DNA from: an uncultured Bacilli bacterium
Lineage (GTDB): Bacteria; Bacillota_I; Bacilli_A; RF39; UBA660
Direction of reading: 5' to 3'
Length of the DNA: 64,000 nt
NCBI GenBank assembly: GCA_944358135.1
Contig: CALVQN010000001.1
Location: forward strand, 944 to 64,943
Positions 44,201-47,200 of this stretch are shown here, piece after piece. The stretch's first letter is position 1; each line of letters starts with the position of its first letter. Position numbers: made by a program.

Positions 44201-47200
44201 GTAAAATAATATTTTGACTTAAAAACATACCAATAATAATAATGACAATTTCGGTAAAATTACTTGATAAATTATATAAAACATTACTAATAACATTATC
44301 ATAAATTCTTCTACCTTCATCTACTGCCGTAACAATTGTTGAAAAAGAATCATCTAAAAGAAGGATATCAGCGACATTCTTCGTAACATCAGTACCATTT
44401 TTCCCCATACCAACAGCTACACTGGCAATCCTCATCGCTGGAGCATCATTTACCCCATCACCAGTCATCGCAACAACTTTACCCTGTCTTTTTAAAGACT
44501 CAATAATTCCATATTTTTGCTCTGGAGTAACTCTTGCAAAAACACGATATTTTAAAACCAAATCATCCATTTCTTTTTGAGTAAACTTCTTTAAAGAATT
44601 AAGCTCTATTCCTTCATTATCACTTGAAATAATACCAACTTCTTTAGCAATAGCACAACCTGTTTCAATATTATCTCCAGTAATCATATAAACATCAATA
44701 TGGGCATCCATACATTTACTTATAGCCTCTTTAACATCCTTGTGAGCTGGATCTTTAAATCCTACTAAGGAAACAAGAACAAGATCATTTTCTTCTTTTG
44801 GATAATCTTCATCATCTTTTACTTTTTTATCCACTTTTTTATAAGCAAAAGCAATTACTTTGAGTGCTTGATTGGAATATTCATTTTCTTGATCTACAAA
44901 CATTTTCTTATCTTCATTAGTAATTTTTCTTATTTTACCATCGATAAAAATAGAACTACTTCTTTTCAAAATAGAATCTAAACTTCCCTTAGCATATAAA
45001 TAAACAGCGTCACCATCTTGATTAACTGAACTCATCATTTTTCGCTCAGAATCAAAAGGAATTTCTATAACTCTAGGATATTTTTCATCAAGCTCTTCTT
45101 TACTAATCACCTGTTTTTGTAAAAAATTAGCACCTGCTACTTCAACGGCATCACCATAATACTTTTTATGATCATCTAAAACTGCATTACTACAAAGCCC
45201 CATAATTTTCGCAAACACAGGATAATTCTTAAAATCAAAATTTTCAGCCTGATAATTCTTTCCATCTGCAAAAATATTTATCACTTCCATTTGATTTGTT
45301 GTAATTGTTCCTGTCTTATCAGAGCAAATTACTTCAGTTGCCCCTAAAGTTTCTATCGCCGCCATATTTCTTACAACTGCTTTTTTCTTTGCCATAGCAC
45401 TAACACCAATCGATAATGTTGCTGTAATGGCAATCGGAAGTGACTCAGGAACACTAGCTACAATCATCGAAATACATAACACAATTAAAGACAACACATC
45501 ATAATCTTTAACAAGTCCAAAAATGAGAACAAAACCAACCAAAAAAATAGCCAAAATCGAAATAAAAGTACTAATTTTCTTTACTTTTACTTGCAAAGGA
45601 GTAATTGGTTCTTCACTCTTATTTAAAGACTCTGCTATACAGCCAATTTCCGTATTCATACCTGTACTAGTTACAACCGCCACAATCTTACCTGTAACCA
45701 AACTAGTCCCAGCAAAAATCATATTTTTCATCTCATGAACACTTTTTTTGCCATCCAATACTTCTTCACTTTTACTAACATAATCACTTTCTCCAGTTAA
45801 AATAGATTCATCAACTTTAGCAAACATAGCATCAATTACTCTTGCATCAGCAGGTATTTTATCCCCCGCTTCTAAAACCAAAATATCACCAACAGCTAAT
45901 TCTTTAGAATCAACTTCCTTTTGATGGCCATCTCTTTTAACAGTAACTTTAGTAGATGTATATTGTTTTAACTTTTCTATAGCATCCTCAGCTTTACTCT
46001 CTTGAAAATAGCCCATTAAAATATTCACAAAAGTACAACCCAAAATAACGATTGGATCTAAATAATCACCATCACCAAATAAAGCATACAAAAAAGATAA
46101 AACACCAACAACAAGTAACAAAATAATCATCAAATTTTGAAATTGCTTTAAAAAAATACTAAGTTTTGTTCTTCTTTTTCCTTCTTCTAATATATTAAAT
46201 CCATTTTTATGTAAACGGATCTTTACCTCTTCATCAGTTAAACCATTTTCATTTGTCATTAAATTATTATAAATTTCTTTTATATCCTGATTATAATATT
46301 TCATATCATCCACCTAATCTAGTATAACACAAATTAAATAGGTTATCTTAAAAAGCAAATAAACTATACTAAATTTTACAAAGAAAAAAGAACATTATGT
46401 TCTAAATATAAATGTTCTCTTCTCTTCTTTTTGGTTTTTCATATACAATTGGATCTTTATATTTTTCTACTAAACATACCTTATTTTCTTGTAAACTCTT
46501 AGGTACATCAATCACTCTTTGATTTCTAGAACCTTTAAAATGTAAAGAGAGGCTTTTTTCTTTCAAAATAAATTTACCATCAACCAAAACATCAATATAA
46601 TCTAAAAACTCTCTTCGATCTTTATCTTCTAACAAATCTTCATATAAAAATCCTGTATAACACCAAACATTTAAACCAATACTTTTAGCATATTTAGCAA
46701 TAACTGCACATTCTTTAGACTGATAAACAGGATCTCCTCCTGAAAATGTTATACCATCTTGTCCTTCTAATTCATCTATTGCTAAAAGGACGTCATCGAT
46801 ATCAACAAGCATCCCTTTATTAAAATCCCAAGTAGAAGGATTTTGGCATCCAGGGCAATGATGTCCACAACCCTGTGTCCATAATACTGCCCGAACACCT
46901 TCTCCATCTACAATAGAATCTCTCTGTATATCAGCTGCTAAACGTATTTGCATTATTGATTCTTTTCACTCATAAGACCTTTAGTAGAATGTTTTACTCG
47001 GTCTCTTTCCTCTGCTTTTTTACCGTTATTAAATCTATCAGTTGTACCAACCAAATAACCAGTTATTCTTCTAATACGCTCAAATTTAACCCCTTCTCCA
47101 ATGATTCTTTCACTATCTTTCATTTTTTATCCTTCCTTTCTAATTTCCATAATAAGATAGACTTGCATTTTTTACTCGCTCAACTGTTACACCCTCTGCT

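Follow-up and report, generated by a model that had tools for sequence, protein, structure and literature searches.

The predicted glycyl-radical loop of an anaerobic ribonucleotide reductase is encoded as a separate 56-residue protein in an uncultured Bacilli bacterium and its relatives

The analysis of a 64,000-nt stretch of DNA from an uncultured Bacilli bacterium (contig CALVQN010000001.1; the whole stretch is referred to as the window) suggested that the anaerobic ribonucleotide reductase (RNR) of this organism is made as two polypeptides. The nrdD locus is read on the minus strand, where the gene order is nrdD, a 56-aa small open reading frame (ORF) and nrdG. The nrdD product lacks the radical glycine, and the small ORF encodes a loop that carries it. 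The locus very probably specifies a functional two-subunit class III (anaerobic, formate-type) RNR, as judged from sequence comparison; complex formation between the two proteins, activation by NrdG and repair by exchange are proposed on the same basis.

The large-subunit gene (47140..49446, minus strand) codes for an ATP-cone, the catalytic barrel, a putative Zn ribbon and a degenerate tail, and ends with a TAG stop codon at 47142-47140. Counted from the first ATG (49446) its product has 768 aa; a second ATG at 49422, with GGAGGA 7 nt upstream, gives 760 aa, the length also called in relatives. This second ATG is the likelier start because the Shine-Dalgarno (SD) sequence GGAGGA sits inside the first codons of the longer ORF, and the real length of NrdD is probably 760 aa. 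The product ends with ...CPGCGRHEAEGVTVERVKNASLSYYGN, an end also written as ...DRDPVCGYTGVINDVCPGCGRHEAEGVTVERVKNASLSYYGN followed by TAG, and the tail after CPGCGR, HEAEGVTVERVKNASLSYYGN (47143..47205, minus strand), reads as a degenerate copy of the Gly-loop segment. The intercistronic spacer, AAAGGAAGGATAAAAA (47124..47139, minus strand), contains the SD-like sequence AAAGGAAGG 7 nt before the ATG of the small ORF (46953..47123, minus strand). The 56-aa protein, MKDSERIIGEGVKFERIRRITGYLVGTTDRFNNGKKAEERDRVKHSTKGLMSEKNQ, consists of a strand, a RITGYL loop and the NrdD C-terminal tail; its predicted radical site, Gly22, is encoded by the GGT codon at 47058..47060 (minus strand) and aligns to Gly711 of Prevotella copri NrdD. 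The TAA stop of the small ORF and the ATG of nrdG have one base in common (TAATG). nrdG (46402..46953, minus strand) encodes a 183-aa activase of the radical S-adenosylmethionine type, which matches TIGR02491 with 153.7 bits (cutoff 126.1). No other RNR was found among the ORFs of at least 600 aa in the 64-kb window. A sequence-only reading of this DNA had described an NrdD ORF of 768 aa stopping just after its Zn ribbon without the radical glycine, a new ORF 17 nt on with its own ribosome-binding site (RBS) 7 nt before the ATG, and a stop codon overlapping the nrdG start. ORF and domain searches confirmed the first of these, and the other two hold as well, the spacer being 16 nt long and the ATG beginning at the 17th base.

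The large subunit retains the characters of a catalytically competent NrdD except for the glycine. Besides the Pfam ATP-cone, it matches Pfam NRDD (PF13597) with 619 bits (cutoff 26.2), which places it among the class III RNRs, and spans positions 3-715 of the 746 positions of the NCBIfam model PRK07111 (NF005497) with 1004.5 bits (cutoff 764). A search of the PDB aligned it to chain residues 9-708 of P. copri NrdD (8P23) with an E value of 8e-171, the aligned part of that chain ending CPKCGSHHID. Equivalents of Cys171, Cys416, Asn435 (the formate-type residue), Glu581 and the NxN flap are all kept, so that the catalytic cysteines expected on the finger loop and the first barrel strand, as well as the substrate and flap residues, are in place. 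The large ORF ends with ...ERVKNASLSYYGN and has Leu at the position of the glycine; the same-chain radical glycine that marks a class III RNR is thus missing. The Zn-ribbon region (47206-47270, minus strand) reads DRDPVCGY...CPGCG and has three Cys, with Asp in place of the first of the four Cys of P. copri NrdD. This substitution is common to split and fused close relatives and is not specific to the split.

The small ORF takes up where the large one ends. In the domain search it covers PRK07111 positions 710-745, and its profile aligns to chain residues 708-738 of 8P23, DKLQRITGYLVGTTDRWNSGKLAELHDRVTH. The 8P23 chain numbering is offset by 4 from that of the P. copri NrdD paper; therefore, Gly22, Tyr23 and Arg30 of the small protein correspond to Gly711, Tyr712 and Arg719 in native numbering. 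That paper assigns three elements to the glycyl radical domain (676-739), namely the Zn site, a buried loop with Gly711 and a tail that passes over the barrel, and it describes bonds from Tyr712 to Glu581 and from Arg719 to the NxN flap. The glycyl radical domain is therefore divided by the cut, which leaves the Zn ribbon on the large subunit and only the Gly loop and C-terminal tail on the small ORF. The earlier description of the small ORF as the glycyl-radical domain thus stands for the loop and the tail and fails for the Zn site. The small ORF has no match to the Pfam Gly_radical (PF01228) or GrcA models at E <= 0.1; its sole matches are to the C-terminal end of NrdD models.

Selection on the small ORF and its independent translation were evident from the comparison of related loci. 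Among 74 distinct split-type small-ORF cores, nonsynonymous (pN) and synonymous (pS) differences amount to 0.14 and 0.87, respectively, with a median ratio of nonsynonymous to synonymous change (dN/dS) of 0.11, indicating strong purifying selection; third codon positions hold most of the differences (19365 / 10818 / 59313 for the three positions). An ATG start is found in 74 of 78 related small ORFs, and an SD match of at least 4 nt likewise in 74 of the 78. The distance from the large-subunit stop to the small-ORF start varies from -1 to 284 nt across relatives, and the frame of the small ORF relative to the large one may be 0, +1 or +2. Between the window and a ~94%-identical relative (L001), a 1-nt indel in the spacer is enough to switch the frame relation. 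The variable spacer length and frame therefore exclude recoding. A 1-nt overlap with nrdG, as in the window, is the commonest arrangement among relatives (13/55).

The split is widely conserved. The exact 56-aa ORF is present on 87 public contigs, and a near-identical cluster member on 416 contigs is HIS87233.1 of Candidatus Caccenecus avistercoris (Bacilli incertae sedis). Without exception, the 120 top-ranking database homologues of the small ORF stand alone as proteins of 52-77 aa, and the small-ORF alignment (A1) contains 28 invariant columns. The nrdD-small-nrdG layout also occurs on independent metagenome contigs, P0008 being listed in 568 blocks. As for the large subunit, 117 of the closest 120 NrdD cluster representatives (71-96% identity) end without the Gly loop, and a contiguous form is absent from the ~70 cluster representatives at >= 74% identity. 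Three fused relatives at about 72% identity (P0509, P0514 and P0521) carry CPGCGRTExDGVxFERIRRITGY at the position of the window's tail. A contiguous nrdD in close relatives, which the sequence-only reading had named as an observation that would tell against a split, was thus not seen, and the alignment with relatives that it had called for found the split conserved in close and distant relatives.

More distant loci gave a similar picture. When one genome per species was scanned and the resulting 80 loci were classed with hidden Markov models (HMMs) for the NrdD core, the small ORF and NrdG, 64 loci were split (51 of them with nrdG in view), 6 were fused, 1 was fused with an additional small ORF, 5 held an orphan small ORF and 4 were truncated beyond classing. 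The split loci come from Bacilli and Clostridia assemblies and also from isolates, which include Succinivibrio dextrinosolvens DSM 3072, Acutalibacter caecimuris M00118 and Bacterium 1XD42-1. OZ006970.1 and CP091739.1 are complete genomes with the split. When the 50%-identity representatives were searched exhaustively with the large subunit in HMMER and sorted by HMM-based classification, the best 150 comprised about 60 split-type, 56 fused and 33 fragmentary sequences, ranks 3-47 being nearly all split-type. The nearest of the 50%-identity representatives (P0121, 60% identical) is fused. A deletion between the duplicated GEGVxxER segments would precisely restore a fused gene, and re-fusion may be easy.

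The similarity between the two sides of the cut points to a duplication. In the window, a local alignment of the large-subunit tail with the small ORF pairs EGVTVERVK with EGVKFERIR (z = 3.2, p about 0.007 against shuffles). Across the family, the tail and the small-ORF N-terminus have (G)EGVxxE[RK][VIL] in common, with p <= 0.05 against shuffles in 65% of 62 loci. The proposal that the tail is a degenerate copy of the small-ORF N-terminus is therefore modestly supported in the window itself and holds better as a trait of the family. The tail motif EGVx[VIM]ER[VI][KR]NAxL is kept in most of the 117 close truncated relatives, and in some lineages the large-subunit tail is long and retains ...KIKGY...EEADR..., so that the entire loop region survives there in decayed form.

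A second family of NrdD-type loop proteins, 89-97 aa long, bears on the same point. Its members carry a conserved N-terminal domain of ~55 aa (MKINVIGGEMEQxEID...IDGDYVDMNYTFExVP), which has no Pfam match, and their operon reads nrdD-small-nrdG-nrdR (small ORFs at L065:3854-4138 and, in L087-L093, at 4001-4270/4294/4276). The AlphaFold2 (AF2) model of an 89-aa protein of this long type displays a beta-alpha-beta-beta N-terminal domain (predicted local distance difference test, pLDDT, 72-79) and an unstructured loop part; a Foldseek search of the protein against the PDB returned nothing at E <= 0.001. In L065, L090/91 and L092/93 the long-type protein follows a full-length NrdD, so that the partner enzyme keeps its glycine as the partner of GrcA does. 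The two loop copies in these loci are identical at 89-100 of 102 nt and 32-34 of 34 aa, which suggests gene conversion between them. By its gene layout, full-length NrdD together with the 89-97-aa protein is a true spare-part arrangement for an RNR. In L087-89, a long-type protein stands beside a truncated NrdD whose tail has decayed to ...SERLKRFVTHGE.... The occurrence of both states in one family supports action in trans. Taken with the tail similarity and the decayed tails, it also supports a path from duplication, through an enzyme plus spare, to the obligate split. The layout probably arose by tandem duplication of the nrdD 3' end. The duplication would have come first and yielded a full-length enzyme with a spare loop protein, a state still found in relatives, and the cis copy of the loop would later have decayed into the present large-subunit tail; we infer this order of steps from the gene arrangements.

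Viral contigs carry the loop protein by itself. A scan of viral contigs gave at least 576 matching stretches, of which the best 80 loci were classed (L095-L174); in 66 of these 80 the small ORF is an orphan, neither an NrdD core nor nrdG being present within 4 kb. These orphans usually have 44-100 aa, lie near position 4001 of the locus in most cases, and evolve under purifying selection (dN/dS = 0.095). Phage genes are the neighbours in both viral loci checked, with a Holliday-junction resolvase, an exonuclease, a small terminase and an invertase in L095. The small ORFs of phage loci L106 and L130 closely resemble the Succinivibrio protein of L025. Neither PHROGs nor the GenBank phage records had a family or an annotation for the viral orphan loop proteins. 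The loop ORF of Bilophila wadsworthia ATCC 49260 (L078:3938-4150) is likewise an orphan in a prophage-like region without an adjoining nrdD, and its neighbours are a 418-aa ORF and a 553-aa ORF with what look like DNA cytosine methyltransferase motifs. The Bilophila loci were accordingly rejected as examples of a split operon. The Bilophila loop ORFs (L078 and L085) have C-terminal extensions near-identical to those in the viral loci L139, L150 and L166. Since an orphan loop protein can act only on a host enzyme, these copies support action in trans; the orphan may be a phage auxiliary gene that gives a radical subunit to the host RNR. The suggestion that the radical-bearing part is a separate small protein acting in trans thus gains support from every comparative test made: the conservation of the split, purifying selection, the ORF's own start and RBS, the variable frame, the intact residues and the phage orphans.

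Several other explanations of the locus have to be considered. An error of sequencing or assembly at the junction, with a truly contiguous gene, would need one indel only and could make such a split in a single assembly. Against it stand the exact small ORF on contigs from independent projects, 87 in all, and a stop and restart that recur in L001-L003 and in numerous further loci; a contiguous reading would, moreover, double the EGVxxER segment, which is single in fused relatives. The probability of such an error is considered negligible. A recent duplication or frameshift that inactivated nrdD, so that the locus is a decaying pseudogene, had been put forward as the alternative in the earlier reading, and the tail does resemble a degenerate copy of the loop segment. 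The split is, however, found in relatives ranging from 96% to under 50% identity, the small ORF has a dN/dS of about 0.1, the catalytic residues are intact in a protein scoring 1004 bits on the NrdD equivalog model, and the tail motif itself is conserved in close relatives. Inactivation was rejected on these grounds as extremely improbable.

The two ORFs might still yield one polypeptide by programmed frameshifting, read-through, an intron or protein trans-splicing. They are in frame in L001-L003, and phage nrdD genes broken by introns and inteins are known. This explanation is nevertheless very improbable, as the frame relation takes all three values among relatives and differs between the window and L001 by the 1-nt spacer indel, and the spacer itself ranges from -1 to 284 nt, the 16 nt of the window being too small for an intron. 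The flanks of about 20 aa and about 12 aa are too short for split-intein halves, nearly all small ORFs have their own ATG and SD, and the phage orphans have no upstream partner. It is also conceivable that the small protein is mainly a regulator, an NrdG decoy or substrate, or a radical reservoir, the truncated NrdD having another role or another radical source. Its presence beside full-length NrdD in some relatives means that it can be dispensable for basic catalysis there, and the orphan phage copies show a usefulness outside the operon. On the other hand, the large subunit of the window is without a glycine at the position of the radical, and no alternative loop was found for it, although none of the residues required for thiyl-radical chemistry and nucleotide binding has been lost. 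Tyr23 and Arg30, whose counterparts make the active-site and flap contacts in P. copri NrdD, are retained in the small ORF, which is more in keeping with insertion into the barrel than with a decoy. A mainly regulatory role is therefore regarded as unlikely, although less remote than the explanations above.

The functional two-subunit RNR may accordingly be pictured as follows. The ~760-aa NrdD would supply the ATP-cone, the barrel with both catalytic cysteines and the Zn ribbon, having lost the radical glycine, and the 56-aa protein, translated from its own RBS, would supply the glycyl-radical loop and the C-terminal tail. NrdG, presumably coupled translationally to the small ORF, would abstract a hydrogen atom from Gly22. 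The loop of the small protein would insert into the barrel of the large subunit and bring Gly22 next to the catalytic cysteine, with Tyr23 and Arg30 contacting the Glu and the NxN flap of the large subunit. As the large subunit of the window is without a radical glycine, the small protein must be an obligate subunit and not a spare part. The likely benefit would be that a radical subunit cleaved by oxygen or quenched could be replaced without remaking the 760-aa enzyme, and phages would exploit the same interface with the small gene alone. Whether the 56-aa protein behaves as an exchangeable radical cartridge, charged by NrdG, plugged into the glycine-less barrel of NrdD and swapped after oxygen damage, is an evenly balanced question.

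Some observations weigh against this proposal. A glycyl radical carried by a free 56-aa peptide would be both exposed and unstable, and activation may need a ternary complex. The AF2 model of the large subunit alone is of moderate quality (mean pLDDT 72.9), and with a pLDDT below 50 for the tail and the Zn ribbon it did not distinguish a placeholder role of the tail from that of a docking strand. In a rough neighbour-joining tree of the large subunits, most split-type sequences fall in one large clade with a few fused ones interspersed, a tree too rough to separate a single origin with re-fusions from several independent splits.

Glycyl radical enzymes are described as single chains with their own radical glycine, the only known exception in trans being GrcA/YfiD, which rescues oxygen-cleaved pyruvate formate-lyase (PFL). 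Andorfer et al. (2021) and a review of glycyl radical enzymes of June 2026 list spare-part proteins as validated only for formate lyases (YfiD and T4 Y06I), and call the existence of spare parts for other glycyl radical enzymes undetermined. The locus in the window resembles GrcA/YfiD of E. coli and Y06I of phage T4 in several respects. Each is a small standalone protein with a loop homologous to the C-terminus of a large enzyme, a description which the 56-aa ORF fits by its own ATG and SD and its conservation as a standalone protein. It is presumably activated by the activase of the large enzyme and acts in trans. The spare and the retained end of the enzyme have a duplicated segment in common, comparable to the overlapping strand of YfiD and cleaved PFL, and a phage-borne version exists. 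It differs in that the 56-aa ORF is homologous to NrdD and not to PFL, lacks the ~60-aa disordered N-terminal half of YfiD, is encoded inside an nrdD-nrdG operon, and serves a large subunit without a glycine, whereas the partner of GrcA keeps its own. The comparison with a GrcA/YfiD-like spare part made in the earlier reading is thus apt as a functional analogy, but the protein does not belong to the GrcA/YfiD family by sequence and is obligate rather than spare in the window.

As compared to single-chain class III RNRs (P. copri 8P23 and T4 NrdD 1H7A), the two-ORF enzyme has the same ATP-cone, barrel, pair of catalytic cysteines, formate-type Asn, NxN flap, RITGY loop and adjoining NrdG, together with a putative Zn ribbon. 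It differs in that the cut separates the Gly loop from the Zn-ribbon region, and the large chain ends in a degenerate pseudo-loop; the contacts Tyr712-Glu581 and Arg719-flap, intramolecular in P. copri, would be intersubunit contacts here. The split class II RNR NrdJa/NrdJb also distributes a catalytic chain over two consecutive genes with a C-terminal functional module on the second, but its second chain is a folded domain as compared to the 56-aa loop peptide of the window. Fragmented nrdD genes of phages are alike in presenting nrdD as several ORFs. The T4 nrdD gene (sunY), for instance, is interrupted by a group I intron. In the Jug jumbo gut phages, nrdD is fragmented by introns and inteins, one terminal 91-aa fragment being without evidence of splicing (PMC12880540). 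Introns, homing endonucleases and inteins are given as the cause of the breaks in these phage genes, which splicing repairs, whereas the window has no intervening element, a 16-nt spacer with an RBS, and a break point conserved across cellular lineages. Surveys of RNR phylogeny and C-termini across all classes mention the split class II NrdJa/NrdJb and no split class III, and one RNR phylogeny kept only sequences of 400-1100 residues; length filters of this kind drop the small protein. No description of a split NrdD was found in open-access papers and bioRxiv preprints, an absence which is not proof of novelty.

Some further features of NrdD proteins and of the surrounding genes were recorded. 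In L094, an NrdD paralogue of ~700 aa (3001-5124, P0199) ends before the Zn ribbon and is without the whole glycyl radical domain; it sits divergently beside a complete nrdD (550-2643, loop RVVGF) and nrdG, and similar ~700-aa representatives are P0200, P0201, P0221, P0224, P0230 and P0232. Among the representatives P0123-P0162 and others, many are 900-1800 aa long and their match to the query is divided into at least two stretches, with the break near query residues 457-464, which suggests large insertions, perhaps inteins, at one conserved site. Many large-subunit tails and small proteins (L004-L077, P0123-P0168, alignment A3) end in cysteine pairs such as CC, CxC, CCGR and CSCSEF. Such ends are reminiscent of the redox-active cysteines at the C-termini of class I and II RNRs, and are absent from the proteins of the window. 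An 877-aa ORF (43680-46313, minus strand) with the look of a P-type ATPase lies between nrdG and a gene for an FkbM-type methyltransferase. In the related contigs L001-L003, the methyltransferase gene comes directly after nrdG.

The locus and its relatives provide a natural and widespread test case for spare parts in an essential enzyme of anaerobic DNA synthesis, with three comparable states: the obligate split of the window, the full-length enzyme plus spare, and the phage orphans. The split bears on the tolerance of strict gut anaerobes to oxygen pulses, the 56-aa protein offers a minimal substrate for studies of the activase, and the orphans suggest a new class of phage auxiliary gene. In annotation pipelines these small proteins are at present either named as the full enzyme or left without a name. 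If the 56-aa protein does act as an exchangeable cartridge, the class III RNR of many gut anaerobes would be an enzyme of large and small subunits, with a functional analogy to class I. Among glycyl radical enzymes it would be the first with a radical site that normally lies on a separate polypeptide, and it would be the first spare-part system outside the formate lyases, and phages would hijack the deoxynucleotide synthesis of their hosts with a cartridge gene of their own and nothing else.

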